Below are positions 40,266 to 56,801 of a stretch of DNA of 64,000 nt, piece after piece (positions within the stretch are counted from its first letter, which is position 1; every line of letters begins with the position of its first letter). Location: NCBI GenBank assembly GCA_016283745.1, contig JAEENM010000147.1, positions 23,079 to 87,078 of the forward strand. The letters are read 5' to 3'. Position numbers and translations under genes: made by a program. This DNA comes from Bacteroidales bacterium. GTDB taxonomy: Bacteria > Bacteroidota > Bacteroidia > Bacteroidales > P3. A model generated the notes under the pieces. It was not told the origin of the DNA, searched no databases, and saw nothing but the letters and a program-made list of their open reading frames with translations.

Positions 40266-40282
40266 ATATATTGTTGTGAAAA

Positions 40283-40789
40283 ATGGAGACAATTAAATAT
40301 TTTCTATTTATATTAGGAGTTTGTTTAATAATTTGGCTAATCCCAAACTTACTCAACAACAAGGTTGGCGATGATGAAATTTGGTGGGAATTTCATGAAC
40401 TTTCAGACGGTTCAGAGATAAGAATAATACACTCACCGAAATGTGATGCTAAAAAGCCCTTTATAGCGTGGAATGTGCAATGCGATATTCTTGATTATGA
40501 AAAACTAAAATATGATGTATATGATTTTTGCATACTCGAAGAAGACGCTGATATGCTTAATGCTATCAGTTATAGAAACATCAAATATGTAATGGAAAGA
40601 CAATGGATTTTTGCGGAAGATGAAACTGATTACGAGTTATGCAAACTACACGAAAAAATGTGGGACACGACTTTTAGGAAATACGAGGTGTCTTTTTCGC
40701 TGAAAGAAGGTGGACTTGTACCACAAGATGATAATGGAATAATTATCTGTGGATATGATTATGATAAACGTATAGGTAAAAACAACTAA
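40283..40789 (+). CDS. AT-rich membrane-anchored hypothetical protein downstream of the repressor (168 aa)
   Basis: Track ORF, N-terminal TM helix YFLFILGVCLIIWLIPNLL. Confidence 0.6.
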   Translation: METIKYFLFILGVCLIIWLIPNLLNNKVGDDEIWWEFHELSDGSEIRIIHSPKCDAKKPFIAWNVQCDILDYEKLKYDVYDFCILEEDADMLNAISYRNIKYVMERQWIFAEDETDYELCKLHEKMWDTTFRKYEVSFSLKEGGLVPQDDNGIIICGYDYDKRIGKNN

Positions 40790-40793
40790 CAAT

Positions 40794-41042
40794 ATGAAAA
40801 AAGCAATCTTTTTAATCACGTGTTTGTTGTTGGGGCAGGCGTTCGTGGCCCAGCCTGCGGGAACAACGTCAAACGATGAAACGCAGGTGTATATATGCAC
40901 CGGCCCCAGTTCAAAGAGATACCACCGCACAAGCACCTGCAAGGGCCTTGTAAAATGCAGCAAGGAAGAGAAAAAAGTCACCAAGTCCTACGCCGAAAGC
41001 AAAGGCAAGACACCCTGCAAGATGTGTTATAAGCGAAAATAA
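40794..41042 (+). CDS. Small secreted Cys-containing protein (82 aa)
   Basis: Signal peptide MKKAIFLITCLLLGQAFVAQ, then C..RYH....C.GL..C ... C..C. Confidence 0.6.
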   Translation: MKKAIFLITCLLLGQAFVAQPAGTTSNDETQVYICTGPSSKRYHRTSTCKGLVKCSKEEKKVTKSYAESKGKTPCKMCYKRK

Positions 41043-41085
41043 ATTTACGAAAACGAAAATATATTTATGAAGGGGTTTTATTCGG

Positions 41086-41247
41086 TTATTTAGGGCAAGG
41101 TATGAATTTGGCATTTATGTTGTGCAGTTCAAAAAAGTCCTGCGGCTGTCCGTCGTATTCAGACCATTGTTTCTCAAACTCTTCGGGTGTCATCCCCGTG
41201 GCCTTTAATTCATTTACATCTATTAAAACAACTCCTTTTGGTTTCAT
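41086..41247 (-). CDS. Possible small protein (53 aa)
   Basis: My own translation: MKPKGVVLIDVNELKATGMTPEEFEKQWSEYDGQPQDFFELHNINAKFIPCPK. Below the track cutoff. Confidence 0.3.
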   Translation of the reverse strand: MKPKGVVLIDVNELKATGMTPEEFEKQWSEYDGQPQDFFELHNINAKFIPCPK

Positions 41248-41311
41248 AACAGATTATTTTAGAACTGCAAAAGTATAAATAAATTTTCAATTATGCAAAT
41301 ATATTTACGAT

Positions 41312-41638
41312 ATGAGTACAATTAAGGATAGAATAATGCAGGTGGTGTTGTACCACAACAAGCCAGTGGAGCGCACTTTCAAGGAGCTTGGCGTTACGTC
41401 GGCCAACTTCCGCGGCCGTGCAAAGACAACGCCCGTGAACTCGGATGTTATTGCCAACCTCTACGCCATGTTCCCGGACATAAACCTCGAATGGCTTTTC
41501 ACCGGCGAGGGACAGATGCTGAAAACCGACACGGAACAGAACACCCTGCTCCTCGACCGCTACACCGAACTTGTGCGCGAGAACGAGCGTCTGCGTATGC
41601 AGTTAAGTAATACCAATGTAATACCAAACGGCCAATAA
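41312..41638 (+). CDS. Second phage CI-type repressor-like HTH protein (108 aa)
   Basis: LYAMFPDINLEWLFTGEGQM carries the same family signature as 39822..40265. Confidence 0.7.
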   Translation: MSTIKDRIMQVVLYHNKPVERTFKELGVTSANFRGRAKTTPVNSDVIANLYAMFPDINLEWLFTGEGQMLKTDTEQNTLLLDRYTELVRENERLRMQLSNTNVIPNGQ

Positions 41639-41926: not shown

Positions 41927-42553
41927 GTGAAAAAAACAATTATCCTTTTCTTTGCATTGGCAATGGGTTTGCAGTTTGCGGCCGCACAAACAACGTTCAA
42001 CATCACTTGGAGAGTTTCACCAAATAGATGTGGTCGTATCACAGATATGAGTGATTATGCCGATGTTACGGGGCTAACAGTGTCGAAACCACAAGGCTCA
42101 ACATCGACATTTGCTATTGAAGAACTTGGAATGAATGGAATTTATCAACTAACCGTGGATGGAGTTGATGTTGATTTTTATAATGATACGAATTTTGCAA
42201 TCGCCCAAGGTTACTACACGTATACTGTTGCCAATCTCCAACATGACGTTGTTTGCGTTGCGCATTTCTGGCCTGGAGAACCGCCAGACGAGGCTGTTAA
42301 CGATGTTAGCGCGTCTAAAATAACCATTTACCCCAACCCCGCAGCCTCTTTCGCCACCCTCACTATAGAAGGTGCCAACGGCGAAGTGGATTACTCCCTT
42401 ATCGACCTCAGCGGTCGCATTATACGTCACAAGACTGTCAACGCCGAATCCGCCGAGCGCATCGACCTCCACGGCCTTGCCAGCGGCACATATTTCGTAC
42501 GCGTGACCAACGAAAATTTCTCGAAAGTGGAGAAACTGGTAATTAGTAGTTAG
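41927..42553 (+). CDS. Secreted protein with a T9SS (Por) C-terminal sorting domain (208 aa)
   Basis: Signal peptide MKKTIILFFALAMGLQFAAAQ. C-terminus ITIYPNPAASFATLTIEG...IDLSGRII...LASGTYFVRVTNENFSKVEKLVI is a typical T9SS CTD. Confidence 0.8.
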   Translation: MKKTIILFFALAMGLQFAAAQTTFNITWRVSPNRCGRITDMSDYADVTGLTVSKPQGSTSTFAIEELGMNGIYQLTVDGVDVDFYNDTNFAIAQGYYTYTVANLQHDVVCVAHFWPGEPPDEAVNDVSASKITIYPNPAASFATLTIEGANGEVDYSLIDLSGRIIRHKTVNAESAERIDLHGLASGTYFVRVTNENFSKVEKLVISS

Positions 42554-42820: not shown

Positions 42821-45385
42821 ATGGCTAAAAAGACCAAAATATCCCTTTCGCGCCTTGAGTCGTTTCTCAAGGCACAATGCGACCGTCTGCGTACCAGCAT
42901 GGATGCGGCGGAATACAAGAACTATATCATTGCGTTGCTTTTCCTGAAACGAATCAACGACCAGTTTGAAATTGACCGTATTGCGTTGAAAGATGAGCTG
43001 AAAAAGCAATATCCCAATGCCGCTGAAGCCGACATCGAAGCGGAATTGGACATTCCCGAAAAATATATCTGCTACGTGCCCGACAAGGCACGTTGGAAGT
43101 TCGTGCTCAACCTTGTGGATGACGAAGGTGAAAACATAAGTTACGCCGATGCCATTACCACGGCATTGGCCGAGGTGGAGAAATCCAACTCGGCACTGCT
43201 GTCGGGTGTGCTGAGCAAGACCAAGTTTAACGAACTGAACACCAAAGGTGAGCGTGTGCTGGACGAGGAGACGCTCAGCGCTTTGCTCAAGGATTTCAAC
43301 GACTTCCCGAAACTGCAGGACGAGAATTTTGAATTTCCCGACCTGCTTGGCGCGGCATACGAGTATCTGATAAAGTTCTTTGCTGAAAGCGCAGGTAAAA
43401 AGGCTGGCGAGTTCTATACGCCGTCCGAAGTAGTCTATCTGATGGGGCAGATTTTGCAACCAAAGGAGACCGACGAGATTTGTGACCCTACCGTGGGCTC
43501 GGGTGGTTTGCTGATTACGATGCATAACTACGTGGAAAACCGCTACGGAAGCGCCGAACGGCTTACCTTGCACGGACAGGAGAAGTTCGACAGTCCTTAT
43601 CAGATGTGCAAGATGAATATGATTTTCCACAATATACGTAATGCGCGCATCGAACAGGGTGACACGTTGCTGAATCCGAAACTGGTGACGGGCGGCACGC
43701 TCAACCAATACGACATTGTGGTGGCCAATCCGCCATTCTCGCAGAACTACACCACCGCCAATATGCAGTTCAAGGAGCGTTTCCAAAACTGGATGAGCAA
43801 GAAGAAACAAGCCGACTTTATGTTTGTGCAGCACATGATTTCTGTGCTGAAAAACAACGGTCGTATGGCTGTGGTGATGCCGCACGGCGTGCTTTTCCGT
43901 GGCGGCGAGGAGCAGAAAATGCGCCAACGCCTGATTACGGGCAGCGAAGGCCACCCATCTTGCATACTGGAATGTGTCATTGGGCTACCGCAAGGGCTGT
44001 TCTACGGAACGGGCATCCCGGCTTCGCTGCTGATTATCAACAAGGCAGGAGCCGCCGACCGACAAGGCGTCTTCTTCATCAATGCCGACCGAGAGTATAA
44101 GGAAGGCAAGAACCAGAACTCGCTGCGTCCCGAGGACATTGAGAAAATCAGCTACGTCTATCACAACAAGATTGAGATTGAAGGTTATAGCCGTATGGTG
44201 AGCCGCGAGATGCTGGAAGCCGAAGACTACAACTGCAATATCCGCCGCTATGTGGACAATTCGGAGCCGCCCACGCCGCAGGACGTAAAGGCGCACCTGC
44301 AAGGCGGAATTCCCGAAGCGGAAATATTGGCACTGAAAACAGAATTCGACTGCTATAAGGGTTTGCAGAACAAACTATTTACTGCGGCAACCGATGGTTA
44401 CGCCCATTTTGCGGATGCTGTAATGGAGAAAGCCGACATAAAAACCATTATCAGCGAAAGCAAAGGCAAACAGCAGGTTGCCGACGACTACCGCAAGGCG
44501 ATAGAAACCTTCTGGAAAGCCTCGGATGCCGATTTGAACAACCTGCACGGCGGCAGTCTGTTCGATTTCAACAAGAACCTCACCGACAGCTTTGTGTCGG
44601 CGTTGTCGAAATTGAAGGTCTTGGACCAGTATCAGGTGCGCGGCTCGTTCGCCCATTTCTCGGATATGCTGAAAAGCGACTTCCGCAGCGTGCAGTCGAG
44701 CGGATGGACGGCGGAGCTGATTCCCGATGATGAGCTCATTGCCAACGAGTTCCCCGAAGTTTTGGCCGACCTGAAACGGCTCGAAAACCGCCGCGACGAA
44801 CTCGATGCCAAGTTTGCCGAGATTGCCGAAATAGACCCTGAAGAGTGGGACGCTGAGCAATATGAAGTGATGCCCAAAAGTGTGATTTCGGACATTAAAG
44901 CAGAAATCAAAGAGTTGAAAGCCCAGAAACGAGAGTTGGCCAAACAGCAGAAAGCTTTGGAGAAACGTCGCAAGGCAGGTGCGGATGTGGCTAAAGAAAT
45001 GGCACAATGCACTGCCGACATTGCCGGACTCGACAGCCAGATTGCCGAAAAGGAAAACGGCATCGCCCACCATGTGGAACTCGAAAACGAGCTGAAGGAG
45101 AGCCGCCGACAGATACGCGAGATAGAGCGTAGCAAAGAGGCACTGGCCGACAAAGCCCGCGAGCAGATTTCGGACGACGATGCCCGCCGACTGATTACGC
45201 AGCGCTGGCTCGCCACCCTGCACGACAACATTGCCGTCTATCTCGAAGCTCACGCCCGACACTTGCAGCAAAACGTTGAACTGCTTCACGATAAGTATTC
45301 CGTGACGCTACGGAATCTGATTGAGGAGCGTGACGAGGCTACGAAAGAGTTAGACGGGTATTTGAAAGAATTGGGGTATATTTAA
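42821..45385 (+). CDS. hsdM: Type I R-M methyltransferase subunit HsdM with a long C-terminal coiled-coil extension (854 aa)
   Basis: Motif I ICDPTVGSGGLL, motif IV IVVANPPFSQNY, N-terminal HsdM-N-type helix bundle. The last ~350 aa are K/E/A/L-rich. Confidence 0.92.
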   Translation: MAKKTKISLSRLESFLKAQCDRLRTSMDAAEYKNYIIALLFLKRINDQFEIDRIALKDELKKQYPNAAEADIEAELDIPEKYICYVPDKARWKFVLNLVDDEGENISYADAITTALAEVEKSNSALLSGVLSKTKFNELNTKGERVLDEETLSALLKDFNDFPKLQDENFEFPDLLGAAYEYLIKFFAESAGKKAGEFYTPSEVVYLMGQILQPKETDEICDPTVGSGGLLITMHNYVENRYGSAERLTLHGQEKFDSPYQMCKMNMIFHNIRNARIEQGDTLLNPKLVTGGTLNQYDIVVANPPFSQNYTTANMQFKERFQNWMSKKKQADFMFVQHMISVLKNNGRMAVVMPHGVLFRGGEEQKMRQRLITGSEGHPSCILECVIGLPQGLFYGTGIPASLLIINKAGAADRQGVFFINADREYKEGKNQNSLRPEDIEKISYVYHNKIEIEGYSRMVSREMLEAEDYNCNIRRYVDNSEPPTPQDVKAHLQGGIPEAEILALKTEFDCYKGLQNKLFTAATDGYAHFADAVMEKADIKTIISESKGKQQVADDYRKAIETFWKASDADLNNLHGGSLFDFNKNLTDSFVSALSKLKVLDQYQVRGSFAHFSDMLKSDFRSVQSSGWTAELIPDDELIANEFPEVLADLKRLENRRDELDAKFAEIAEIDPEEWDAEQYEVMPKSVISDIKAEIKELKAQKRELAKQQKALEKRRKAGADVAKEMAQCTADIAGLDSQIAEKENGIAHHVELENELKESRRQIREIERSKEALADKAREQISDDDARRLITQRWLATLHDNIAVYLEAHARHLQQNVELLHDKYSVTLRNLIEERDEATKELDGYLKELGYI

Positions 45386-45400
45386 TGGACAATTGCAGTT

Positions 45401-46486
45401 ATGGATATAAACTATAAAAATTGGATAACAAGCATTGCCGCCAGATTCAAACAAGCGCAGATTAAGGCTGCTACGCAGGTGAATGCCGAAATGCTTCGGT
45501 TTTATTGGGAACTGGGGAAGGATGTTCTGCAGCTGTCGGAGACTTCGGCCTATGGTGACAAGGTTTTGCAGAAAATCAGCAAGGATTTGCAGTCTGAACT
45601 GCCAGATGTAAAATCTTTTTCACCGACCAATCTGCTCTATATGAAGAATTTTTATGCTCTTTATTATCAATACATTACAAACGCTCCACAACTTGTGGAG
45701 CAATCAGAAAACGAGTCGGCGCAAATCACTCCACAAGTTGTGGAGCAATCTCAAAAAATACAACTTGAAAAATTATTCAGAATACCGTGGGGACATCAAC
45801 GATATATAATCGACAAGTGCAAAGGTAACCCACGGAAAGCGATTTTCTATGCAAGCAAGACATTGGAAAACAACTGGTCGAGAGCTGTTTTGCTCAATTT
45901 TATGGATACCGACTTGTTTGAACGGCAAGGGAGGGCTATATCGAACTTTAAGAATCAGTTGCCCGCGCCTGACAGCGACTTGGCTCAAGAGATAACCAAA
46001 GACCCGTATAATTTTGATTTTCTTACCATACACGAGCGTTACAACGAAAAAGAACTAAAGGACGCGCTTATGGACAACATCACAAAATTTCTGCTCGAAC
46101 TGGGCAACGGCTTTGCCTTTGTGGGGCGTGAAGTGCGGATTATGGTCGGCAACAAGGAGAAGTTTATTGATATGCTCTTTTATAACATCAAGCTGCATTG
46201 CTATGTGGTGCTCGAAGTTAAGGTGACACCGTTTGAATCGGAGTATGCGGGACAGCTCGGCACCTATGTGGTGGCGGTGAATCATCAGCTCAAAGGCGAA
46301 AAAGATGCCGCCACCATTGGCATTTTGGTGTGCAAAGGCTTGGACAAGGTTGAAGCACAATATGCGTTGGAGTCGTCGAGCCAGCCCATAGGCATATCCG
46401 GCTATACGCTGTCGAAACTCATCCCCGAAAAATTCAAATCTTCGCTGCCAAGTATTGAGGAAATCGAAGATTCAATAAACAATTGA
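45401..46486 (+). CDS. YhcG/DUF1016-family PD-(D/E)xK nuclease-like protein (361 aa)
   Basis: N-terminal WELGKDV...YGDKVLQKISKDL and C-terminal FIDMLFYNIKLHCYVVLEVKVTPF...GQLGTYV are characteristic of DUF1016. Nested between hsdM and hsdS. Confidence 0.75.
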   Translation: MDINYKNWITSIAARFKQAQIKAATQVNAEMLRFYWELGKDVLQLSETSAYGDKVLQKISKDLQSELPDVKSFSPTNLLYMKNFYALYYQYITNAPQLVEQSENESAQITPQVVEQSQKIQLEKLFRIPWGHQRYIIDKCKGNPRKAIFYASKTLENNWSRAVLLNFMDTDLFERQGRAISNFKNQLPAPDSDLAQEITKDPYNFDFLTIHERYNEKELKDALMDNITKFLLELGNGFAFVGREVRIMVGNKEKFIDMLFYNIKLHCYVVLEVKVTPFESEYAGQLGTYVVAVNHQLKGEKDAATIGILVCKGLDKVEAQYALESSSQPIGISGYTLSKLIPEKFKSSLPSIEEIEDSINN

Positions 46487-46488
46487 CA

Positions 46489-47742
46489 ATGATGACCGAG
46501 CAAGAACATAATAATGTACAATGGAAGAAGGTTCGTTTTGGCGAGTTCTTTGATATGCTGCCGACAAACACATTGTCAAGGGATAAATTAAACAACCAAC
46601 AAGGTGAATATCAGAATGTTCATTACGGCGATGTTTTGATAAAGTACCCATTTTGTCTTGACTGTAACAACGCTGAAATCCCTTACATAAACGACGGTGT
46701 TAAGTTTAATATGGCAGAAGTTCGTGATGGTGATGTGATTTTTGCTGATACGGCGGAAGATGATACTGTTGGAAAGTGTGTTGAAGTGTTGAATGTAGGT
46801 GACAGAAAAATTGTCTCAGGTTTACACACATATTTTTGCAGACCAAGACATAAAATGGCATTGGGTTATTTGGGCTATTATTTGAATAGCAATCATTTCC
46901 ACAACCAATTGTTGCCTTATATAGCAGGTTCCAAGGTTTCGTCTGTAAACAGGACTTCCATTGCTCGCACTTTTATTTCCTATCCCGCCGACCTTTCCGC
47001 CCAGCGCCGCATAGCCGCCATACTCACTTCTGCCGACAAGGTGATAGCCGCCACGCAGAAAACCATAGCCAAATACAAGCAGATGAAGCAGGGAATGATG
47101 GAAGACCTTTTCAATGAACAATGTATAATGAACAATGTACAATGGAAGAAGGTGAGGTTGGGGGAATACATTGAATTGCAAGGAGGTTTTGCGTTTCAAA
47201 GTCGTGATTTTTCAGATTCAGGAGTTCCTTTAATACGAATAGGGGATATAACACCTAACGGACTAAATATTAGTAATTCTGCAAAACTGCCAATTGATTA
47301 TTTGACTGAATATGAAAATTTTGTATTGAATATTAATGATACTGTTATTGCAATGTCAGGCGCAACGACGGGAAAATGCACATTAGTTACTCAAAAAGAC
47401 ATACCTGCATTATTAAATCAACGGGTTGGACGGTTTAGGATTAAAAACAACAGTATTGATAAATTGTTCTTATACTATATTGTAAGTAATAACGTGTATC
47501 AGCAGAAATTACTATTAGATGCCGTTGGTGGAGCACAACCTAATGTAAGTCCAAAACAAATAGAATCGGTGTTTTGCAATGTTCCAATTCTATCGGACGG
47601 AAGACCAAATCTTACCGAGCAGCGCCGCATCGCCGCCATACTTTCGGACATAGATGCAAAAATAGCGGCGGAGGAAAAGGTGCTGGAGAAATATGAGAAG
47701 GCGAAGAAGGGGTTGATGGAGAGATTGTTGAACGAGAAATGA
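46489..47742 (+). CDS. hsdS: Type I R-M specificity subunit HsdS (two TRDs)
   Basis: Duplicated NNVQWKKVR(F/L)GE TRD starts and duplicated conserved helices (A/E)QRRIAAIL...KY(K/E)..K.G(M/L)ME.L(F/L). The ATG at 46489 is preferred over the TTG at 46483. Confidence 0.9.
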   Translation: MMTEQEHNNVQWKKVRFGEFFDMLPTNTLSRDKLNNQQGEYQNVHYGDVLIKYPFCLDCNNAEIPYINDGVKFNMAEVRDGDVIFADTAEDDTVGKCVEVLNVGDRKIVSGLHTYFCRPRHKMALGYLGYYLNSNHFHNQLLPYIAGSKVSSVNRTSIARTFISYPADLSAQRRIAAILTSADKVIAATQKTIAKYKQMKQGMMEDLFNEQCIMNNVQWKKVRLGEYIELQGGFAFQSRDFSDSGVPLIRIGDITPNGLNISNSAKLPIDYLTEYENFVLNINDTVIAMSGATTGKCTLVTQKDIPALLNQRVGRFRIKNNSIDKLFLYYIVSNNVYQQKLLLDAVGGAQPNVSPKQIESVFCNVPILSDGRPNLTEQRRIAAILSDIDAKIAAEEKVLEKYEKAKKGLMERLLNEK

Positions 47743-47776: not shown

Positions 47777-50719
47777 ATGAATAAGAAGAAATTAGAAACG
47801 ACAGAGAGCAAAAGAATAGATAAGATAGAGGGCTTAACTATAGACAAATTAAATAAAACAATAGTTCAGCTTTTAAAGATTACAAATTTTGAAAATATAG
47901 TTGAGAACGAAAACTATATTATAGCAACAGAGAAATCATATTTTTCGGAAATAAAGCACGTGTTTGTTATTCCAACAATAAGGATGAGTGGGAGTATTGA
48001 TATCGATAGTGTAGTAAAATTAATTGAATCCATTCAGTCAAATGAATTGGCAAATGTCGTAACATTAGTATCGCAATTCCACATATCAAAGGGCTTTCGT
48101 GCGGCTTTTGAAGCGAAGTTGAACAATATTAAGTTTGATTATCTTGATAGAGATGTTTTGATTCAATATATCAATAAATATAATGATTCTTTTTGGAGAC
48201 ATGAAGATGTAGAGTTGCTTTCTTACGAAAAGTACTTCAAGGAACAATTAAATAACGAAAATCAACTTAAAAAGCTTCATCTGTCCAATGATAAATATCA
48301 AAAAATAATCAACTTATATATACAACCGACACTCTCAACAAATGAAGAAGAAGCCAAGACGCACACATACCATAGAAAAAGAGTTGATGTCGAAGGCGTG
48401 TTGAATGAGCCATCGTGCGTATTTCTAAGTGGAATTTCTGGCTCAGGGAAAACAACATTGTTAAAGAGGATTGGAGTAAAACTATTAGAGAATAATGATA
48501 CTAAAGACGGTAAGTTGAATCTACCCATCTTTATCACATCTTCTGATTTACTAGAACACAATCGTAATATCAATGATGTAATTCTGTCAAAAACAAAAAA
48601 CCATCTCCCCTATGATAAATTGCATGAATTATCAGATAAATACGATGTTAGTGTTCTTGTTGACAGTATAGACGAGTTTGAAGAAAAAGACAGAATGGAA
48701 ATATTGCGCGTTCTATTAAACAACTATACTAATAAAGGTATGAAGTTTTACATCGGTTCTCGTGGGACATCTATTGAAGATGAAAGATTACCAATAAAAG
48801 GGAAAATTAGAGAATATTACATCAATAGCTTCAATCAAGAACAGATTAAAAGATATGTGCAAGCACTTTTGCCTAATGAAGATAAGGCCAACTCGTTAAT
48901 GGATTCTTTACGAGAAAATAAAATTCTTGAGAAATTGCCAATTACACCTTTGACGCTTTCTCTCATAACTATTATATACGATGAGCAAGATTATGAAATC
49001 CCTGCAACTGTTACTGATATATACAAACAATTTAACAATATTATAAACGGTAGGAATATTGTTTCAACAAAATTTGAATTTGTTGATATTAGTTTTAGGG
49101 AAAGGGTTTTGTCAATCTACGGGTTATATCTTCTTGAACAACCAAATCATGAGCCCATGAAACGAAAAGAGTTTGTCTCGTTTTACAAAGAGTTCTTCAA
49201 AGGAAAATCTTTAACATTCGAATACGAACAAATTGACGATGTGTTGGAGTATATCCTTAATAACACTGGAATACTATACCTTAAAGAGGATAATACTGTG
49301 CGTTTTGCTCATGATTCATATATGGAGTTCTATGCAGCAGTTGAAATTTTTAATTATCATAGAGAGAAAGAAGATGATATTGTTTCAAACTTCTTTGATT
49401 TAATGTGGCAGAATGTTGCCATATTCTATGGTGGAATGACAAAAGATATGTGCCTTTTTGCAGAGAAGATAAACAATAAATTAAAAAGTGCCGCTAAATT
49501 TATTGAATACATATCTGGCATACAAGGTGCGGGTTATTTATTACAAGCACTTTATATGACTGACAATGAAAAAAGAAAGGATGTTATTCTAACTGCTCTT
49601 GATTTGGTTTTGGAAACAAATGAGTTTTTTAAAAAAATGACCACAATCAATGAGACAATGTTCCAAAACTACAGATTACCAATTGTCCAACTGCTAAATT
49701 TTCTCCATTTCTACGAGATGTTTAATTCATTAACTCTACGAGAACCGTTGACAATGACTTTTGAGCAATTGCGAACAGAATACGAATTTATGTTGGAGGA
49801 TAAAAACAGTATTGACACAACCAAGCTTCCTGCTTTAGGATATAAACTTATAGAATTAGCATTTACTTTGGATTCCAAGCGATTAAATGATCAAAGAGCT
49901 TTAAATTATGTTGTTGAACAAAATGAGTTAATGCGAGATAGTAATCTATATTCATTGATGAATCTATGCCTAGATTTTTTAAATAAAACAAATTATAAAG
50001 AATTAAGGCAAAGTGTATCAAAGAGTGCTTCAAAAATACAACCTCTACTCAATGTGCTTTCCGATGATCCTACCGGAAAAATACGTTTCTCTCCAATGGA
50101 TAGTGTTCATCCGAATCGTAAAGTAAAATTATTTGTTGAAGGGAAATCAGATGCCATAATACTCGAACATGCTTATATGACTCTTACAGGAGGGCAATCC
50201 CCATATTGGAACATAGCTATGGCTACAAGTAACGGAGAAACCGGTTCGTCTATAGAGGTTACTAAAGCCATTGAAACAGCTCTAAATTATAAAAACGAGT
50301 ATGATTTCATTATTGGCTTATTCGATCATGATGCTGCTGGTTTGAAAGAGTTCTGTAGATTAAACAGTGATTCTTATGAACAGATAGAAAAACGGTGTAT
50401 AAAACGAAGAAAAAATAGTAATATATTTGTAATGTGTCTGCCGATTCCAGCAGAAATGATTCAATATGAGCAAGAAAGACAGGAGTTCAATTTCTTTGAA
50501 ATAGAGCATTACTTTGGGCATGATTATCTGAAACGAAACAATATGATAAAAGAGAAACAAACTTTAGATAATGTATATGAAATTAAAGATAAAAATAAAA
50601 TACCATTTGCATATGATATTTGCAAGGAGGTGACCCCAGAAATATTTAAATTTTTTGTGGATTTATTTAAAAAAATAGATGAAATAACAGGAAGACAGAT
50701 TGATTATTTGATTAATTAA
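47777..50719 (+). CDS. STAND/NACHT NTPase with a C-terminal TOPRIM-like domain and an N-terminal Mrr-like region (980 aa)
   Basis: Walker A FLSGISGSGKTTLLKRIG, Walker B VSVLVDSIDEFEE, NACHT-type LPITPLTLSLI and FAHDSYMEFYAA. C-terminal KLFVEGKSDAIILEHAY + GLFDHDAAG gives the TOPRIM Glu and DxD motifs. Visibly AT-rich compared with the hsd genes. Confidence 0.8.
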   Translation: MNKKKLETTESKRIDKIEGLTIDKLNKTIVQLLKITNFENIVENENYIIATEKSYFSEIKHVFVIPTIRMSGSIDIDSVVKLIESIQSNELANVVTLVSQFHISKGFRAAFEAKLNNIKFDYLDRDVLIQYINKYNDSFWRHEDVELLSYEKYFKEQLNNENQLKKLHLSNDKYQKIINLYIQPTLSTNEEEAKTHTYHRKRVDVEGVLNEPSCVFLSGISGSGKTTLLKRIGVKLLENNDTKDGKLNLPIFITSSDLLEHNRNINDVILSKTKNHLPYDKLHELSDKYDVSVLVDSIDEFEEKDRMEILRVLLNNYTNKGMKFYIGSRGTSIEDERLPIKGKIREYYINSFNQEQIKRYVQALLPNEDKANSLMDSLRENKILEKLPITPLTLSLITIIYDEQDYEIPATVTDIYKQFNNIINGRNIVSTKFEFVDISFRERVLSIYGLYLLEQPNHEPMKRKEFVSFYKEFFKGKSLTFEYEQIDDVLEYILNNTGILYLKEDNTVRFAHDSYMEFYAAVEIFNYHREKEDDIVSNFFDLMWQNVAIFYGGMTKDMCLFAEKINNKLKSAAKFIEYISGIQGAGYLLQALYMTDNEKRKDVILTALDLVLETNEFFKKMTTINETMFQNYRLPIVQLLNFLHFYEMFNSLTLREPLTMTFEQLRTEYEFMLEDKNSIDTTKLPALGYKLIELAFTLDSKRLNDQRALNYVVEQNELMRDSNLYSLMNLCLDFLNKTNYKELRQSVSKSASKIQPLLNVLSDDPTGKIRFSPMDSVHPNRKVKLFVEGKSDAIILEHAYMTLTGGQSPYWNIAMATSNGETGSSIEVTKAIETALNYKNEYDFIIGLFDHDAAGLKEFCRLNSDSYEQIEKRCIKRRKNSNIFVMCLPIPAEMIQYEQERQEFNFFEIEHYFGHDYLKRNNMIKEKQTLDNVYEIKDKNKIPFAYDICKEVTPEIFKFFVDLFKKIDEITGRQIDYLIN

Positions 50720-50734
50720 TAAATAGTATCTTAG

Positions 50735-50881
50735 CACAAACAACCCGCCAAGAAATTAATTGTAAATTGTTCATTGTAAATTGTTAATTGATTATGAGTG
50801 AATATACCAACGTTGAGCATCCTTTTCTCGAAAAGCTGCGCGAGATAGGCTGGCAAGTGATAGACAAAGGCAGCGGCGGCG
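50735..50881 (+). repeat. Copy A of the hsdR upstream region + first 29 codons
   Basis: Manual alignment to 52805-52944. From the ATG, 4 mismatches over 87 nt. The upstream part differs by about one heptamer indel plus a few substitutions. Confidence 0.9.
50756..50790 (+). repeat. Heptamer-phased tract (TWMATTG x5) immediately upstream of the hsdR-remnant ATG
   Basis: ttaattg|taaattg|ttcattg|taaattg|ttaattg. Confidence 0.8.
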
Positions 50882-50892: not shown

Positions 50893-50975
50893 AACATTCA
50901 GTTGCAAGTTCTTCTGAAAAATCGTATTTTTGCATAATCGTAAAATAGAATTGAAATAAATAAAATATATTGATA

Positions 50976-52262
50976 ATGAGCAGAATAAAGGTTAGGAACT
51001 TCGGGCCCATCCGCGAAGGGTTCATCGATAACGACGGATGGTTAGACATTGGAAAAGTCACCGTTTTCATCGGAGACCAAGCCTCCGGCAAAAGCACCGT
51101 GGAGAAATTGGTTTCGTTGTTCACATGGATAGAAAAAAGTATAGTTCGTAATTTGATTTCACCGGATCAATTAAATGTCGATATTTTTAAGAATTTATGT
51201 GCTCAGCAGGATATTATCGAATATTTTGCCAAAAACACATTTTTGTCCTTTAAGGGAGAGGCATACGACTTTGAATACGATGAGGTAAAAAAATCTTTTA
51301 AATCTAGAATCAACAATACGGGATACAAGAGCTATGTTTTGCCCAAAATTCAATATGTATCAGCGGCAAGGAATCTGCTTACAATTTTGTATAACATTTC
51401 ATTACAGAATATTGTTGACAAAAATGGCAATGTTATAGATTTGTCTTCAAATATCCCGTTTATGGTCAGGGTTTTGAATATTGAATACTTGAAAGCGTTG
51501 GAAGAATATGCGAAAAATGGATTTGCTTTGCCAATAAACGACACAAGTGTGTACTATCAGAATCATAACACATATATTATGGCAAAAGGCAATCGGGTAT
51601 CAATGGCAGCGGCTTCAAGTGGCATACAGTCTATAACGCCATTGCTGCTTGTCAGTCATTCTTTGTCGAATGAAGTAAGGAGAGACATATATGAGAAAGT
51701 ACAAACGATAGATAATAATCTTAAAAACAGAATAGAGGCTGATTTTGCAAAAGAAAAATCGAGTTTGTACGATAAATTCAAACAGATTAGTTCTTTTGGA
51801 AGGGGAATTTTGACAGACAAAGAAGACGAAAAATTGTTGGATACGAAATTGAAAAAATACATTCCTTCATCTTTTATCAACATTGTTGAAGAACCAGAGC
51901 AGAACTTGTTTCCCAACTCTCAGCAAAAGGTAATAAATAGATTATTGGAGTACAACAATGCCGTAAAAGAAAATAAACTTATACTTTCCACTCATTCGCC
52001 CTATACTTTGACGGCACTTAACAATTCTATTTTAGCAGAAGAAGTGTTTGAAAAAACAGGAAAGTCAATTGATGCTTACAGCCCGGAAAAGATGGTCTCT
52101 TTTGCTGATGTTGCCGCCTACCAATTAGAGGATGGCAAAATAATCAGCATAAAAGATGAAGAAACCAGACTGATAAATGCAGATGCCATTGATGGTTGCT
52201 CTGCAAAAATAAATTCCGATTTTGATGACTTGTTAGATTTGTTGCCCGAAAACGATGAATAG
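50976..52262 (+). CDS. ABC/SMC-type (AAA_15/21-like) ATPase, candidate defence ATPase (428 aa from ATG)
   Basis: IKVRNFGPI lead-in, Walker A FIGDQASGKST, signature-like AASSGIQS, Walker B FINIVEEPEQNLFP, H-loop LILSTHSP. AT-rich. Confidence 0.8.
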   Translation: MSRIKVRNFGPIREGFIDNDGWLDIGKVTVFIGDQASGKSTVEKLVSLFTWIEKSIVRNLISPDQLNVDIFKNLCAQQDIIEYFAKNTFLSFKGEAYDFEYDEVKKSFKSRINNTGYKSYVLPKIQYVSAARNLLTILYNISLQNIVDKNGNVIDLSSNIPFMVRVLNIEYLKALEEYAKNGFALPINDTSVYYQNHNTYIMAKGNRVSMAAASSGIQSITPLLLVSHSLSNEVRRDIYEKVQTIDNNLKNRIEADFAKEKSSLYDKFKQISSFGRGILTDKEDEKLLDTKLKKYIPSSFINIVEEPEQNLFPNSQQKVINRLLEYNNAVKENKLILSTHSPYTLTALNNSILAEEVFEKTGKSIDAYSPEKMVSFADVAAYQLEDGKIISIKDEETRLINADAIDGCSAKINSDFDDLLDLLPENDE

Positions 52263-52264
52263 CG

Positions 52265-52732
52265 ATGAATGTTCAAAATAATGGTATAAAAATCACGGCT
52301 CCCTCATTTTCAACCGACGTTGAACTAAGCAATGACAAACGCCAGTCTTTTGTGTTGAAAGGCGAGCATAAACGGAAATGGACAGCGGAAAATCCAAATA
52401 AACATATTGGGGTTTGTTTGAAAATAGATGATGCATTGATAGCAACAGAGCAGCAGAATAAGTGCGACCGCGGGCTTTTGTTGGATGATAATCGTTTGTA
52501 TTTGGTCGAACTCAAGGGCGATGATTATAAAACCGCAGTAATCCAACTGATTGAAACAAAGAAATACTTTTTGTCCAATTATTCAGATTATGATTTGGCC
52601 TTTCATGCAAGAATTGTAGGAAGGTCTTTCCCGAAAGCGACAACAGAACTTCAAAAGGCTAAGAAAGATTTAAAGAAGAACTTTGGCAATAATTTTGCAC
52701 TATTTGAGAATAAAAGATCAGAGAAAATATGA
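52265..52732 (+). CDS. Small PD-(D/E)xK-like protein partnered with the ATPase (155 aa)
   Basis: KCDRGLLLDDNRLYLVELKGDDYKTAVIQL gives a D...E-x-K arrangement. The start is 3 nt after the ATPase stop. Confidence 0.6.
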   Translation: MNVQNNGIKITAPSFSTDVELSNDKRQSFVLKGEHKRKWTAENPNKHIGVCLKIDDALIATEQQNKCDRGLLLDDNRLYLVELKGDDYKTAVIQLIETKKYFLSNYSDYDLAFHARIVGRSFPKATTELQKAKKDLKKNFGNNFALFENKRSEKI

Positions 52733-52769
52733 GTGAATACGCGAACGTTTAGCATCCTATTTTTTTCTC
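52729..52769 (+). repeat. Copy C: degenerate ~40-bp remnant of the hsdR 5' end
   Basis: atgagtgaatacgcgaacgtttagcatcctattttttt versus atgagtgaatatacaaatgttgagcatccttttctc. Contains an in-frame TAG. Its ATG overlaps the TGA of the 155-aa gene. Confidence 0.7.
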
Positions 52770-52804: not shown

Positions 52805-52944
52805 CACAAACAACCCGACAAGCAAAATAATTGTTAATTGTAAATTGTTAATTGATTATGAGTGAATATACAAATGTTGAGCATCCTTTTCTCGAAAAGC
52901 TGTGCGAGATAGGTTGGCAAGTGATAGACAAAGGCAGCGGCGGC
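52805..52944 (+). repeat. Copy B: authentic hsdR upstream region + 5' end
   Basis: See copy A. Confidence 0.9.
52827..52854 (+). repeat. Heptamer-phased tract (WTAATTG x4) immediately upstream of the hsdR ATG
   Basis: ataattg|ttaattg|taaattg|ttaattg. Confidence 0.8.
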
Positions 52945-55900
52945 ATTCCGCAAGACCCCGCCGAGAGTATGCGCACGTCGTTCAGCGAAGTGGTGCTCAA
53001 AGATGAGTTCTTCAAGAAGTTGGGCGAACTCAACCCGTGGATAACCGCGGAGCAAAAGGAATACTGCTACCGCAAAATCACCGACATTGACAAGCCGCTA
53101 ACCGATGCCAACCGCGAGATTCACAATATGCTGCTCGAAGGCATCCACCTGCGCACCAAAAACGAACAGACGGGCGAGGAAAACCCAACAGCCAAAGTCA
53201 TCAACTTCGACAGATACGAGAAAAACTCTTTCATTGCCATCAACCAGTTCCGTGTAGATACCAACAACACCAAACCCTTCATCATCCCCGACATTGTCTG
53301 CTTTGTCAACGGTCTGCCGCTAGTGGTGATTGAGTGCAAAGACGAGAATGTCTCGGAGCCGATGAGCGAAGCCTTCGACCAGATAAAACGCTACGCCAAC
53401 CAGCGTGTCATCGACGACCCTTTTGCCGACGGCATATCGGAGGGCTGCGAGCGGCTGTTCCATACCAACCTGTTCAGCGTCATCACCCGTGGCGTTGAGG
53501 CGCGATGCGGCACCATCTCGGCCGATTTCGATTTTTATCTCAATTGGAAAGACATATTTCCCGAAGAGTACGCCGAAGGCACCAACATCAACCCCGCCGA
53601 ACGACAGGAAATCCTTATCAAAGGAATGTTCAACCACGAGATTCTGATTGACATCTACCGCAACTTCACGCTCTATATGCAGAAAGGCGACAACACGGTG
53701 AAAATCATCTGCCGCTATCAGCAATATCGCGCCGTGGGCAAAATGATTCGCCGCTTACAGAGCGGCACCGACTGGCGTAGCCGAAGCGGCGTCATCTGGC
53801 ACACGCAGGGCAGCGGCAAGTCGCTCACAATGGTGTTTCTGGTCAAGAAGATGCGCCGCATTGCTGACCTTCGCGACTACCGCATACTGATGGTGGTTGA
53901 CCGCCACGACTTGGAAGACCAGTTGGCCGAAACCGCCGAATACACAGGCGAACTGCGCCACGACCCGACGACCAAGAAGGTTCAGAACATTGTGGAGAAC
54001 CGTCAGGCGCTGGTGAAACTCGAAGGCGACACCGCCGACCTTAACTTGGTGATGATTCACAAGTTCGGCGAAAACAAGGAGTACTCGCTCGAATCGCTGA
54101 TAAATGCAGGCATTGTGCCGCAATACGAGTCGTTCCCCGTCATCAACGAGAGCCCGAAGATTCTGGTGCTGATAGACGAGGCGCACCGCAGCCAGGGCGG
54201 CGAGATGGGCGACAACCTGTTCCAGGCTTTCCCCAATGCGGCACGCATCGGTTTCACTGGCACACCGCTCATTACGCCGCGCCATAAGGCAACCACCTGC
54301 GAGCGTTTCGGTCAGCAGGCGGGAGTTTTCATCGATACATACAAGATGAACGATTCGGTGCGCGACAACGCCACCGTTGATATAAAATACATCGGTCGCA
54401 AAAGCGACGACAGCATACCGTTCAAAGACGAGTTCGATGCTGAATTTGAACGCACATTCGCCAACCGCTCGCAAGAGGAGCGAATTGAGATTCAGAAACG
54501 TTACGGCACAATGATTGCCTACCTTGAAAGTGCCGACCGAGTGATGAAAAACGCCCGCGATATGCTTGCGCATTACGTTTCGGAAATCCTTCCAAACGGA
54601 TTCAAAGCGCAGGTTGTGGCATCGTCAATTATGGCGGCAGTGCGTTACAAAATCGCTCTCGAAAAGTTGATTCCTGAATTTATTGCGGCAGAAGAACAAA
54701 AGTCGGACGACGAGCGCGACAATGTGATGTTGCAACGCCTGCGCATGTTGAAGGTTCGGGCTGTGGTGTCGAGTGCGGGCAACAACGAGGCCGCAATTAT
54801 TCGCACTGCCCGAATAGAAGCCGACACCGACGATGCCATCACCAACTTCAAAAAGGATTTCGATGCAGAGAATCCGCTTTCGGGCATTGGCATCCTTTGT
54901 GTCTGCGACCGCCTTCTGACGGGTTTCGATGCGCCAGTTGAGCAGGTGATGTATCTCGACAAAAACCTGTCGGAGCACAACCTGATGCAGGCCATCACCC
55001 GTGTGAACCGCACCAAGAAGAACAAAAAGCACGGCATTGTGGTCGATTACTTCGGCGTCACCAAAAACCTGCACAAGGCTCTGGGCATCTACAATGCCGA
55101 CGATGAGAAAGCGGCAAAAGAGGATTTGGCAGAGTTCGAAACCTATTTTTCCGCCATCGAAAAAGAGATCCCCGAGTTGGAGATGCGTTACAACAAAATT
55201 GTTCAGCGATTCGAGAACGAGGGCATTGCCGACATCAACGATTTTCTTGAGCAACGCACAAGCAGGGAGCGCGAAAAGGAACTTTGTGAAAAGATTGTGG
55301 AAGTGGCCGAAAGCATCAAATTCCGTTCGGAGTTGGATGCCTTGTTCCGCCTGTTCTTCGACATCTTCGACCTGCTTTTCAACGAGCCTGAAACACGCAG
55401 CCGCTATTATGTCCCCGCCAAACGAATGGCCTACATTGTGGCACTCATACGTTGGCACTATAAAGATGAGACGCTCGATTTGAAATGGGCGAGCGAGAAA
55501 GTGCGCCGCCTGCTCGACAAATACCTGAAATCAGATGGTGTTCGCGAGACAGTTCCCGAAGTGGATATCTTGTCGGATGATTTCCCAAAGATTGTTAGCA
55601 ATATGTACGGCAATCCGCAGACTGTGGCTTCGGCTATGGAGCACCAAATCCGCGACCGTATCATTATCAAATTGGGTGAAGGACGGAACACCGCACTTTA
55701 TCAGAAGTTCAAAGACCGAATGGAAAACATTCTCACCACATACGCTGGCAACTGGTCGGAGATGATAAGCGAATTGGAGCGTCTGCGTCAGGAATTGGCA
55801 AATCCGAAACCCGCTGTGGTGTCGGAGGAAAAAGAGCCCTTCTACGACAAACTCTGCCAATGCGCAGGCGTGGATTTTGAGGATCGCCACGACAATATCA

Positions 55901-56118
55901 TCGCTGTCACTGATCAGGTGATGACGCTGATATATGCTGCTATGTCCATTCCGAACATCTGGACAAAACCAACCAACGTGAACGATTTGCGAGGAAAGAT
56001 TGGCACAACATTGCGATTCTCGGGCATTCAGCAACTGAAAGAGAACAGCGAATCCATTGTTACAGAATTGATTAAGTTGGCAAAAAGTAATGAGAGCGTT
56101 TTGAGGCAATTCGTATGA
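52858..56118 (+). CDS. hsdR: Type I R-M restriction/helicase subunit HsdR (1086 aa from ATG)
   Basis: N-terminal nuclease region IPDIVCFVNGLPLVVIECKD (PD..E-x-K), helicase motif I WHTQGSGKSLTM, motif II LVLIDEAHRSQ, motif III GFTGTP, motif VI QAITRVNR. Confidence 0.95.
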   Translation: MSEYTNVEHPFLEKLCEIGWQVIDKGSGGIPQDPAESMRTSFSEVVLKDEFFKKLGELNPWITAEQKEYCYRKITDIDKPLTDANREIHNMLLEGIHLRTKNEQTGEENPTAKVINFDRYEKNSFIAINQFRVDTNNTKPFIIPDIVCFVNGLPLVVIECKDENVSEPMSEAFDQIKRYANQRVIDDPFADGISEGCERLFHTNLFSVITRGVEARCGTISADFDFYLNWKDIFPEEYAEGTNINPAERQEILIKGMFNHEILIDIYRNFTLYMQKGDNTVKIICRYQQYRAVGKMIRRLQSGTDWRSRSGVIWHTQGSGKSLTMVFLVKKMRRIADLRDYRILMVVDRHDLEDQLAETAEYTGELRHDPTTKKVQNIVENRQALVKLEGDTADLNLVMIHKFGENKEYSLESLINAGIVPQYESFPVINESPKILVLIDEAHRSQGGEMGDNLFQAFPNAARIGFTGTPLITPRHKATTCERFGQQAGVFIDTYKMNDSVRDNATVDIKYIGRKSDDSIPFKDEFDAEFERTFANRSQEERIEIQKRYGTMIAYLESADRVMKNARDMLAHYVSEILPNGFKAQVVASSIMAAVRYKIALEKLIPEFIAAEEQKSDDERDNVMLQRLRMLKVRAVVSSAGNNEAAIIRTARIEADTDDAITNFKKDFDAENPLSGIGILCVCDRLLTGFDAPVEQVMYLDKNLSEHNLMQAITRVNRTKKNKKHGIVVDYFGVTKNLHKALGIYNADDEKAAKEDLAEFETYFSAIEKEIPELEMRYNKIVQRFENEGIADINDFLEQRTSREREKELCEKIVEVAESIKFRSELDALFRLFFDIFDLLFNEPETRSRYYVPAKRMAYIVALIRWHYKDETLDLKWASEKVRRLLDKYLKSDGVRETVPEVDILSDDFPKIVSNMYGNPQTVASAMEHQIRDRIIIKLGEGRNTALYQKFKDRMENILTTYAGNWSEMISELERLRQELANPKPAVVSEEKEPFYDKLCQCAGVDFEDRHDNIIAVTDQVMTLIYAAMSIPNIWTKPTNVNDLRGKIGTTLRFSGIQQLKENSESIVTELIKLAKSNESVLRQFV

Positions 56119-56801
56119 AAATAGGCGATTTGGAAATAGAAATAAAACGCTCAAAGCGGCGAAAAACCATCACCGTTAATATCGAACGTGACGGCAGCGT
56201 GAACGCCGTAGCTCCTTTCGATTGCGACGATGAGACCATCCGCAAAGAGCTTGAGGCAAGGGAGTATCTGATTTGCAAGCATGTGGCTAACAGAATAGCT
56301 GTGAACAAGGCGTATGTAAACCGCACTTTTGTCAACGGTCAGGCTTTCCTTTTTATGGGAGAATCATACAATTTGCATATTTCCGAAACGGCTAGGAAAT
56401 CTCTGGAAATTGTTGACGACAAATTTGTTTTAAGTGAGAAGTGTTTGCCTAAGGCCAAAGAAACCTTCATCAATTTTTACAAAAAACAGGGATTACCTTA
56501 TTTACGAGAGCGGGTTGCCTATTTTTCCAAATTGGTAGGTCGCGAACCCGTTTCCATCCGAATTATAGAATTAGGCTCGCATTGGGCCTCCTGTACCCCT
56601 CGACAAACTATTAATTTCCATTGGAAGTGTATCATGGCCAAGCCGATGATTATCGATTATCTGATAGTTCACGAACTGACGCACCTCAAATATCCCCAGC
56701 ATACCCGACAGTTTTGGGATGCGGTTTTTTCGGTGATGCCTAATTATAAAGAGTGCGAGGATTGGCTGCACAATTATGGAGTGACGCTGGAGCTTATTTG
56801 A
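56115..56801 (+). CDS. YgjP/DUF45-type zinc metallopeptidase (228 aa)
   Basis: HELTHLKYPQHTRQFW (HExxH) near the C-terminus. 4-nt overlap with hsdR. This family commonly follows hsdR. Confidence 0.8.
   Translation: MKIGDLEIEIKRSKRRKTITVNIERDGSVNAVAPFDCDDETIRKELEAREYLICKHVANRIAVNKAYVNRTFVNGQAFLFMGESYNLHISETARKSLEIVDDKFVLSEKCLPKAKETFINFYKKQGLPYLRERVAYFSKLVGREPVSIRIIELGSHWASCTPRQTINFHWKCIMAKPMIIDYLIVHELTHLKYPQHTRQFWDAVFSVMPNYKECEDWLHNYGVTLELI

Follow-up and report, generated by a model that had tools for sequence, protein, structure and literature searches.

A PDC-M29-type pair of an ABC ATPase and a small PD-(D/E)xK-like protein nested in a Bacteroidales type I restriction–modification locus

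The two genes considered here occupy positions 50976–52732 of a 64,000-nt stretch of Bacteroidales contig JAEENM010000147.1; the window, in what follows, is that whole stretch. Both genes lie on the forward strand. The first (50976..52262) encodes a 428-residue ATPase resembling PtuA. The second (52265..52732) encodes a 155-residue stand-alone protein of the PD-(D/E)xK type, a putative nuclease effector. Two nucleotides ('cg') separate the two open reading frames (ORFs). A TTG at 50970 would lengthen the ATPase by two residues, but its start is placed at the ATG at 50976 because the homologues all begin there with MSRIK. The gene order around the pair is hsdM, DUF1016, hsdS, a gene for a 980-residue NACHT protein, the ATPase gene, the small gene, hsdR and YgjP. 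The pair is inside a type I restriction–modification (RM) locus, with hsdM, DUF1016 and hsdS upstream and hsdR downstream. Its GC content is 0.359 for the ATPase gene and 0.365 for the small gene, compared to 0.515 for hsdM and 0.513 for hsdR. By profile match, the two proteins are the A and B components of PDC-M29, a candidate defence system in the PADLOC database. A preliminary description of this DNA had reported an ABC-type ATPase and its motifs, a 155-residue ORF two nucleotides downstream, AT-richness of both genes, a location within the type I locus and a bracketing by repeats of the hsdR 5' end. Each of these was found again, and the view that follows from them, of a conserved two-gene module that is foreign DNA lodged within a type I RM locus, is supported.

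The ATPase carries a full set of ABC-type motifs. These are Walker A (GDQASGKST, residues 33–41), the Q-loop (Q126), the signature (ASSGIQS, with SSGIQS at 214–219), Walker B and the D-loop (IVEEPEQNLFP, with VEEPE at 304–308) and the H-loop (LSTHSP, with H340). The key residues are invariant in 39 homologues, namely G33, G38-K39-S40-T41, Q126, S215-G216-x-Q218-S219, E305-E306-P307-E308 and H340. Pfam assigns AAA_15 (E 5e-13) and AAA_21 (E 3e-7). The AF2 (AlphaFold2) model has a pLDDT of 88. When it is compared to the PDB by Foldseek, the nearest structures are PtuA of E. coli Septu (8eea, 8ee4, 8sux) and the type I-A retrons (Ec78, Ec83, Eco7), followed by retron Eco8, GajA and an SMC head, all with probability 1.00 and with E from 2.6e-8. 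The protein is a member of the ABC/SMC-head ATPases by its conserved motifs and by its ABC fold. At the level of sequence profiles, PtuA (1.7e-5) and an OLD nuclease (3.8e-3) are the only relatives with a solved structure. Neither Pfam nor the AF2 model shows a fused TOPRIM domain. NCBIfam has nothing for either protein of the pair beyond a weak MAD3 C-terminal match.

The small protein belongs to a family of small proteins with a sporadic distribution. A profile search of 1.84 billion representatives gave 970 clusters at E<=1e-3, and the best 150 of these are nearly all stand-alone proteins of 135–200 residues. The close relatives, in 54 clusters at no less than 51% identity, come from metagenomes and from Bacteroidales metagenome-assembled genomes (MAGs). 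PHROGs gave nothing significant, and a tblastn search of plasmids gave no match. A tblastn search of phages gave one unverified 4.7-kb faecal fragment, which has the ATPase upstream too. Among 68 divergent homologues, with identities down to 23% and a mean column identity of 22%, residues C67, D68, E82, K84, G85 and Q94 are invariant, and N43, D55, L83, A91 and T98 are nearly so. The stretch CDRGLLLDDNRLYLVELKGDD, which had been singled out as fitting a D...E-x-K site of the restriction-endonuclease fold, is present as quoted. The core as a whole can be written as D55, C67-D68, E82-x-K84 and Q94-xxx-T98.

The AF2 model of the small protein has a pLDDT of 92.5 and a beta-beta-beta-alpha-beta-alpha core, preceded by an extra beta-rich module in the N-terminal 53 residues. 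The elements of the core include a strand at 69–73, a strand at 77–82, a helix at 88–105, a strand at 112–119 and a helix at 126–140. D68 immediately precedes the first of these strands, E82 and K84 are at the end of the second, and Q94 is on the helix that follows. The order of elements in the predicted structure is that of the restriction-endonuclease core, and the conserved D...(D/E)xK residues fall on consecutive strands of an alpha/beta core, as is characteristic of PD-(D/E)xK proteins. This combination of conservation and predicted topology gives good support to a minimal PD-(D/E)xK active site. The top-probability Foldseek matches in the PDB are to PD-(D/E)xK nucleases: BstEII (E 0.03), the Card1/Can2 nuclease domains (probability 0.87), Mus81 and NucS/EndoMS. 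In Pfam, 8 of the 68 relatives match HSDR_N weakly (best E 2e-4), one matches HSDR_N_2, and one matches NucS_C, this last also weakly.

The preliminary description had called for a survey of how well the gene pair is conserved. The survey took in six species-representative Bacteroidales MAG loci, contigs encoding identical proteins, 20 distant metagenome loci and one unverified phage-labelled fragment; individual loci are referred to below by number (L001 and so on). The two genes adjoin in every locus that is informative. In all 39 loci having upstream DNA, which reduce to 27 non-redundant pairs, an ATPase gene is directly upstream of the small gene on the same strand, and the two overlap or are within a few nucleotides of each other. 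This holds even in the 20 distant metagenome loci, where the identity to the window is down to 25–32% in the small protein and 18–26% in the ATPase body. Across the pairs as a whole, identity falls to ~22% for the ATPase and ~25% for the small protein. The pairing is far beyond chance.

The assignment to PDC-M29 comes from hidden Markov models (HMMs), whose matches were judged without PADLOC's per-model cut-offs. The ATPase matches PDC-M29A (PDLC04562) along its full length, with an E of 2.7e-87 and residues 1–422 aligned to positions 1–406 of 410. The small protein matches one PDC-M29B model (PDLC04563) with an E of 6.4e-8, residues 30–141 aligning to positions 31–152 of 164, and a second (PDLC04564) with an E of 5.9e-4. 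Among its 68 divergent relatives, 59 match PDC-M29B. The order of A then B on one strand, here with a 2-nt gap, is also that of PDC-M29, and so is the context in which that system was discovered, a cassette embedded in a type I RM, BREX or DISARM locus. The point of difference is that the B protein of the window is a weak match, covering 112 of its 155 residues, and the Bacteroidales branch therefore lies at the edge of the PDC-M29 model. On these profile matches, we take the pair to be a Bacteroidales member of PDC-M29.

This changes one part of the preliminary description, which could not assign the pair to a named system and suggested that it was novel or poorly described. Poorly described it is, PDC-M29 being a bioinformatic candidate, but it is not new, being already catalogued in PADLOC. 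The description had also held that mapping to an already named system would refute its proposal, and that has come about in part. PDC stands for 'phage defence candidate', and PDC-M29 is multi-gene candidate number 29 in PADLOC-DB v2 (Payne et al., bioRxiv 10.1101/2024.01.29.577857). In the same work, 145 single- or multi-gene candidates were curated from genes that lie within the loci of BREX, DISARM or type I RM systems, and these were placed in PADLOC untested. The relevant row of Table S8 in Payne et al. (CAS_00123, FAM_00005>>FAM_02872, with the number 110 before it) reads 'Assign as candidate PDC-M29'. Embedded genes of such a kind have been validated as defences in seven of nine tests. 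A cold-seep study tested eight candidates, and PDC-M29 was not among them.

The ATPase is mosaic. Its last ~85 residues (~345–428, after the H-loop THSPY) exist in two unrelated variants. When the variant is the first (LNNSILAEE...), the partner is always 154–157 residues long; when it is the second (IIGYMTLAVKA...EDLCQ), the partner is always 169–178 residues. The longer partner is a distant member of the same family (profile E ~1e-10) that has kept the N...ID...CD...ELK...QL..T signature. The C-terminal variant matches the partner subtype in 11 of 11 loci. Similarly, the identity between small proteins tracks that of the ATPase C-terminus (Spearman 0.86) far better than that of the ATPase body (0.46), as judged from 351 comparisons of 27 pairs, which are non-independent and for which p-values are not meaningful. 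This co-variation suggests that the C-terminal module of the ATPase docks the nuclease.

A different part of the ATPase varies between L012 and L013. From Walker B onwards, across the C-terminal part, the small gene and hsdR, the DNA of the two loci is 99.9% identical. The promoter and the first ~55 codons are 88% identical. Between these, the central ~670 nt, encoding residues ~55–300, cannot be aligned. Comparison of the two (L012 8782–10017, L013 541–1848) thus shows the presumed sensor insert cleanly exchanged in nature. From such comparisons, the central insert is probably the diversifying part of the protein, with a role in sensing a ligand or trigger, and recombination would have been anchored in the regions of Walker A and Walker B, which are conserved. 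The same logic has been put forward for the inserts of ABC ATPases by Payne et al.

A putative promoter precedes the pair. The box GTATTTTTGCA (50924..50934, forward strand) begins 52 nt before the ATPase ATG and fits TAnnTTTG, which is the consensus of the -7 element of Bacteroides promoters. Of 11 loci, 10 have a block GAAAAAnnnGTATTTTTGCA ~40–50 nt ahead of the start of the ATPase, regardless of the context of the pair. The window has 17 occurrences of the 11-mer where 2.9 would be expected, a six-fold enrichment, and the copies ahead of hsdM (42719) and of the ATPase are exact. Its function as a promoter is proposed from the Bacteroides consensus; sigma-70 promoter scans are not applicable to Bacteroidetes. 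Because the block is conserved whatever the context, fits the consensus and is enriched, the cassette appears to be an autonomous transcription unit. A terminator scan found no terminator-like site between the small ORF and hsdR, and a scan of 42–57.5 kb against Rfam at gathering score found nothing.

The junctions of the cassette are marked by remnants of the hsdR 5' end. The type I restriction subunit gene hsdR (52858..56118, forward strand) is directly 3' of the cassette, and its functional upstream region and 5' end span 52805..52944. A duplicate of the upstream region and first ~29 codons is found at 50735..50880 on the same strand, at the junction between the NACHT and ATPase cassettes. 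Positions 50765–50880 are a 96% identical copy of 52829–52944, and positions 50735–50755 are 90% identical to 52805–52825. In addition, a degenerate relic of the hsdR start (ATATGAGTGAATA..., 52728..52761, forward strand) overlaps the stop of the small ORF and is an 85% match to the hsdR 5' end. A repeat at 42045–42067 was considered as a fourth hsdR copy and rejected; it falls within an unrelated ORF and matches at 78% over 23 nt. In the window, the gap from the small ORF to hsdR is ~120 nt. In three other loci (L001 at 462, L003 at 10465, L017 at 8751), the stop of the small ORF overlaps the functional hsdR ATG in the sequence ATATGA, an arrangement that implies that HsdR and the nuclease-like protein are translationally coupled there.

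Such remnants are not confined to the window. They are found at cassette boundaries also in L003 (7492–7559 and 8568–8625), L014 (5076–5107), L017 (6885–6903) and L019 (4691–4767), with lengths that range overall from 19 to 116 nt. In L003, there is one after each of two different cassettes. The remnants suggest that recombination has recurred, with hsdR homology as its anchor and a second junction that is illegitimate, and a site-specific integrase is disfavoured because the lengths of the remnants vary. A site-specific mechanism of insertion was rejected on that ground. There is also a repeat that involves hsdS. The sequence at its target recognition domain (TRD) boundary (encoding ..NNVQW, 47111–47143) has a reverse-complement copy at 50759–50791 and again at ~52829–52857, just 5' of hsdR. 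Copies of this kind are present in three loci, 88–96% complementary over 24–33 nt, the others being at L014 1596–1622 and at L019 1125–1150 and 1736–1762. They could be an inversion or recombination site, the relic of an inverted hsdS' cassette or chance AT-rich heptamer repeats.

Seven distinct arrangements place the pair inside type I RM loci, all within one orthologous HsdR lineage, and it is always the final cassette before hsdR. The hsdR orthologues of L012–L019 have HSDR_N, ResIII, SWI2_SNF2 and T1R_D3 domains. Upstream of the pair in these loci, between hsdS and the ATPase gene, is a slot of variable content, which we regard as a compact defence hotspot. In the window it is filled by a separate embedded cassette consisting of the gene for the NACHT/STAND NTPase (47777..50719, forward strand; GC 0.313; Pfam NACHT E 2.4e-10). 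The C-terminal ~280 residues of the protein, which include KVKLFVEGKSDAIILEHAY, have no Pfam match and could be a TOPRIM/DUF4435-like effector; the gene looks like a separate single-gene defence candidate. In L014, the slot (2819–6866) has a split AAA_15 gene and HARE-HTH. In L017 (4682–6862) and L019 (2320–6882), it has TIR_2 and two ThsB_TIR genes, and L019 has a PDDEXK_4 protein as well. In L003 (4920–8518), it has a three-gene cassette and then a separate 281-residue ORF (7673–8518); two of the L003 ORFs are labelled histidine-kinase-like and trypsin-like from reading of the sequence only.

The upstream half of the host RM locus (42821..47742, forward strand) consists of hsdM (42821–45385), the DUF1016/YhcG gene (45401–46486) and hsdS (46483–47742), and YgjP (56115–56801) follows hsdR. 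The DUF1016/YhcG gene encodes a PD-(D/E)xK domain (YhcG_C E 6.8e-58) and is another embedded gene; elsewhere, its slot between hsdM and hsdS is occupied by a small HTH_DeoR-like ORF. Further upstream, translations of the ORFs at 36085–38042 (reverse strand) and 39822–41638 (forward strand) read as a YqaJ-like exonuclease, a RecT-like protein and small HTH repressor-like proteins, and a prophage or integrated element may adjoin the RM locus on that side. Contexts outside the type I loci include two with other defence-related genes. In L024, a distant PDC-M29-like pair is found between a ResIII helicase and an AAA_21 plus DUF4276 module with an N6_N4 methylase, in what appears to be a type III-like RM island. 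The second module (an AAA_21/AAA_15 ATPase and DUF4276, 7614–9376) is directly 3' of the pair, so that two different ABC-ATPase modules are nested in one island. In L010, the genes downstream of the pair give weak matches to DUF4007 and BrxC/PglY-N and include an SMC-like ATPase and a PAPS-reductase-domain gene.

Among known systems, one of the closest is Septu, including the effectors of the type I-A retrons (Ec78, Ec83, Eco7). Like Septu, the pair is a two-gene operon with an ATPase followed by a small nuclease-like gene, and the ATPase fold is shared, with Foldseek E values of ~1e-8 to 1e-7 to 8eea, 8ee4, 9e90, 9kk2 and 9n6b. The effector differs, being HNH (PtuB) in Septu and of the PD-(D/E)xK fold here, and neither Pfam nor PADLOC gives the small protein a match to HNH or PtuB. 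The likeness of the ATPases is at the level of fold, the PADLOC PtuA HMMs covering only residues ~296–351 (E 8e-10). In Septu, ATP inhibits the PtuB nuclease. As for the retrons themselves, there is no reverse transcriptase ORF in 42–57 kb, and no Rfam family at gathering score in that region. PARIS, Gabija, OLD, PD-T4-4 and AbiL/RloAB share with the pair the broad AAA_15/AAA_21 clade of ABC ATPases, as reflected in partial HMM matches of the ATPase to AriA (1e-14), PD-T4-4_A (6e-15), GajA (1e-7) and AbiLi (2.6e-6). However, none of the effector types that these systems use (TOPRIM/DUF4435, UvrD helicase, DUF4276, RloB) matches the small protein. In particular, the AriA match is confined to residues 298–343 and there is no AriB DUF4435/TOPRIM partner, and in comparison to Gabija the ATPase lacks the TOPRIM domain and the cassette has no GajB UvrD helicase gene.

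HEC-02 pairs an ABC ATPase with a NERD protein, which is of the PD-(D/E)xK superfamily, and it has been shown to confer anti-phage defence with both genes required (Payne et al.). As with the pair described here, the locus in which it was found belongs to another defence system. The sequences of the two show no detectable relationship, and the effector here, which is HsdR-N-like, is much the smaller one. HEC-02 did not appear among the best 25 of the ATPase's 45 PADLOC matches or in the two that the small protein gave, and Pfam showed no NERD match. Membership in Septu, PARIS, Gabija, AbiL/Rlo, PD-T4-4, HEC-02 or the retrons was rejected in each case, either the partner domain being absent or the ATPase matches being partial.

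The locus is best explained if the pair came into the interval between hsdS and hsdR by horizontal transfer, as an operon equipped with its own promoter. As to what the operon does, the functional guess of the preliminary description, a sensor–effector defence pair, is reasonable and is kept. We think it fairly probable that the pair works in the manner of Septu or HEC-02, with the ATPase as the sensor that controls a nuclease effector. By this reading, the gene A product would be an ABC/SMC-head ATPase resembling PtuA, and ATP would be bound by its head-to-head dimer or by a higher oligomer. Its variable central insert (~55–300) would be the infection sensor, and its C-terminal ~85 residues would hold the gene B product and keep it inactive. 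Gene B would encode a minimal nuclease of the PD-(D/E)xK or RecB/HsdR type acting through D68, E82-x-K84 and Q94-xxx-T98. A phage cue would then shift the nucleotide or ligand state of the ATPase; the cue might be nucleotide depletion, or it might be an anti-restriction protein or a structure of the phage. The nuclease, released or activated, would cut phage nucleic acid, host nucleic acid or both, and the infection would abort. In favour of this reading are the strict pairing, the invariant motifs, the register that the small protein shares with the HsdR nuclease motif, the modularity of the ATPase, the defence-related neighbours of several loci and the analogy of HEC-02. We infer the formation of the complex, the nuclease activity, the trigger and the defence phenotype; the motifs, predicted folds, gene pairing, mosaic evolution and family assignment are observed.

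Several points weigh against this reading. The small protein of the window has no Pfam match of its own and no match to a PDB sequence, and searches with alignment profiles gave one spurious match and then none. In Foldseek, no PDB match had E<1e-3, and BFVD gave only uncharacterised proteins, none with E<1e-3. The case for nuclease activity is made from motif conservation with weak fold and profile signals, the case for contact between the ATPase and the nuclease is made solely from co-variation, and the trigger and substrate are proposed by pure analogy. Many of the loci are solo, with the pair located 3' of dnaK or among housekeeping, cell-envelope or polysaccharide genes, and defence-island enrichment is not demonstrated because of these. 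A literature search found no paper that names or tests PDC-M29, which is absent from the main texts. Finally, the resemblance to the HsdR nuclease domain is of low significance. The small protein has the same spacing as that domain (HSDR_N, with the RecB-family D...ExK...QxxxY), namely D, 13 residues, E-x-K and then Q, and the sole stretch aligned by hhalign to an HsdR N-terminal alignment places D68, E82, K84 and Q94 onto HsdR D145, E159, K161 and Q175. The E is 0.016, however, and the probability is just 2.9%. It differs in being a stand-alone protein of 155 residues with no helicase, and in having QxxxT instead of QxxxY. Since the statistical support is weak, common descent of the small protein with HsdR is not established.

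The shared register with HsdR is one of the observations that raise the question of a link to the host RM system in the manner of PrrC. PrrC of the EcoprrI hsdMSR locus, discussed in Payne et al., is a precedent for the placing of a defence gene for an ABC-type NTPase inside a type I RM operon. By analogy, the ATPase could monitor HsdR or HsdM and unleash an HsdR-like nuclease as a back-up when a phage anti-restriction protein disables the enzyme, or the small protein could modulate or replace the nuclease domain of HsdR. This would account for the position of the pair, always last before hsdR in the seven distinct RM loci, for the overlap of its stop with the hsdR ATG in L001, L003 and L017 and the relic of such an overlap at 52728–52761 in the window, and for the lack of either a terminator before hsdR or a promoter box seen directly upstream of it. 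We nevertheless consider it rather unlikely. The pair and its promoter block also occur where there are no type I genes, 3' of dnaK in L002 and L007–L011 and among housekeeping genes in L004/5, and 17 of the distant metagenome loci carry the pair without type I genes. The RM-embedded cases all belong to one HsdR lineage (82–92% identity) and may represent few embedding events. PrrC itself is a single polypeptide that has a C-terminal anticodon nuclease and depends on Hsd, whereas here there are two genes, found also without RM genes.

A more elaborate proposal, which we hold to be quite doubtful, would join that link to the hsdR remnants. The type I RM locus might be a cassette-capture array that stacks defence cassettes at the hsdR 5' end, each leaving a remnant. 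The PDC-M29 pair would be its fixed terminal member, translationally coupled to hsdR and supplying an HsdR-derived back-up nuclease, with a swappable insert that senses anti-restriction factors. If true, this would amount to a PrrC-like guard with a modular, recombining sensor.

It is improbable that the pair has no immune function, whether as a selfish addiction or toxin-like module, as a repair or recombination pair (a RecF/RecN-like ATPase with a nuclease) or as an agent of cassette mobility into the hsdR 5' end. The solo contexts without defence neighbours would suit such a role, the Pfam entry AAA_21 is annotated as 'putative AbiEii toxin', and the duplications of the hsdR 5' end flank the cassette. 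However, the remnants flank unrelated cassettes in L003 and L019 as well, and their variable length speaks against a site-specific activity of the pair. The sporadic distribution and low GC also tell against it, the insert swap between near-identical loci fits an arms race better than housekeeping repair, and the rate at which embedded genes of this kind have been validated as defences points the same way. We give equally little credence to a non-catalytic small protein, a DNA-binding or adaptor subunit of nuclease-like fold through which the ATPase would bind or occlude DNA or recruit HsdR or other nucleases: the weak statistics of the nuclease matches and the extra N-terminal module would allow for it, but D68, E82, K84 and Q94 are strictly invariant in sequences that average 22% column identity, which is the pattern of an active site and not of a decayed one.

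To the PADLOC entry, which is without a described fold, mechanism or phenotype, we add the nuclease assignment of the B protein on predicted grounds, the mosaic structure of the ATPase and the hsdR-remnant junctions. None of this will surprise the field: the system was already catalogued, and its design principle has been validated elsewhere in HEC-02. If defence by PDC-M29 is confirmed, it would bring a further type of effector, a minimal HsdR-like PD-(D/E)xK nuclease, to the ABC-ATPase sensors known from Septu, PARIS, Gabija and HEC-01 to HEC-04. The loci also constitute a natural experiment, in which some near-identical loci differ only in the central insert of the ATPase and others exchange the C-terminal adaptor and the nuclease together. 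The sensing and effector-holding parts are thus directly testable by domain swaps. Finally, the repeated hsdR-5' remnants suggest how defence genes come to be embedded in the RM operons of gut and rumen Bacteroidales.

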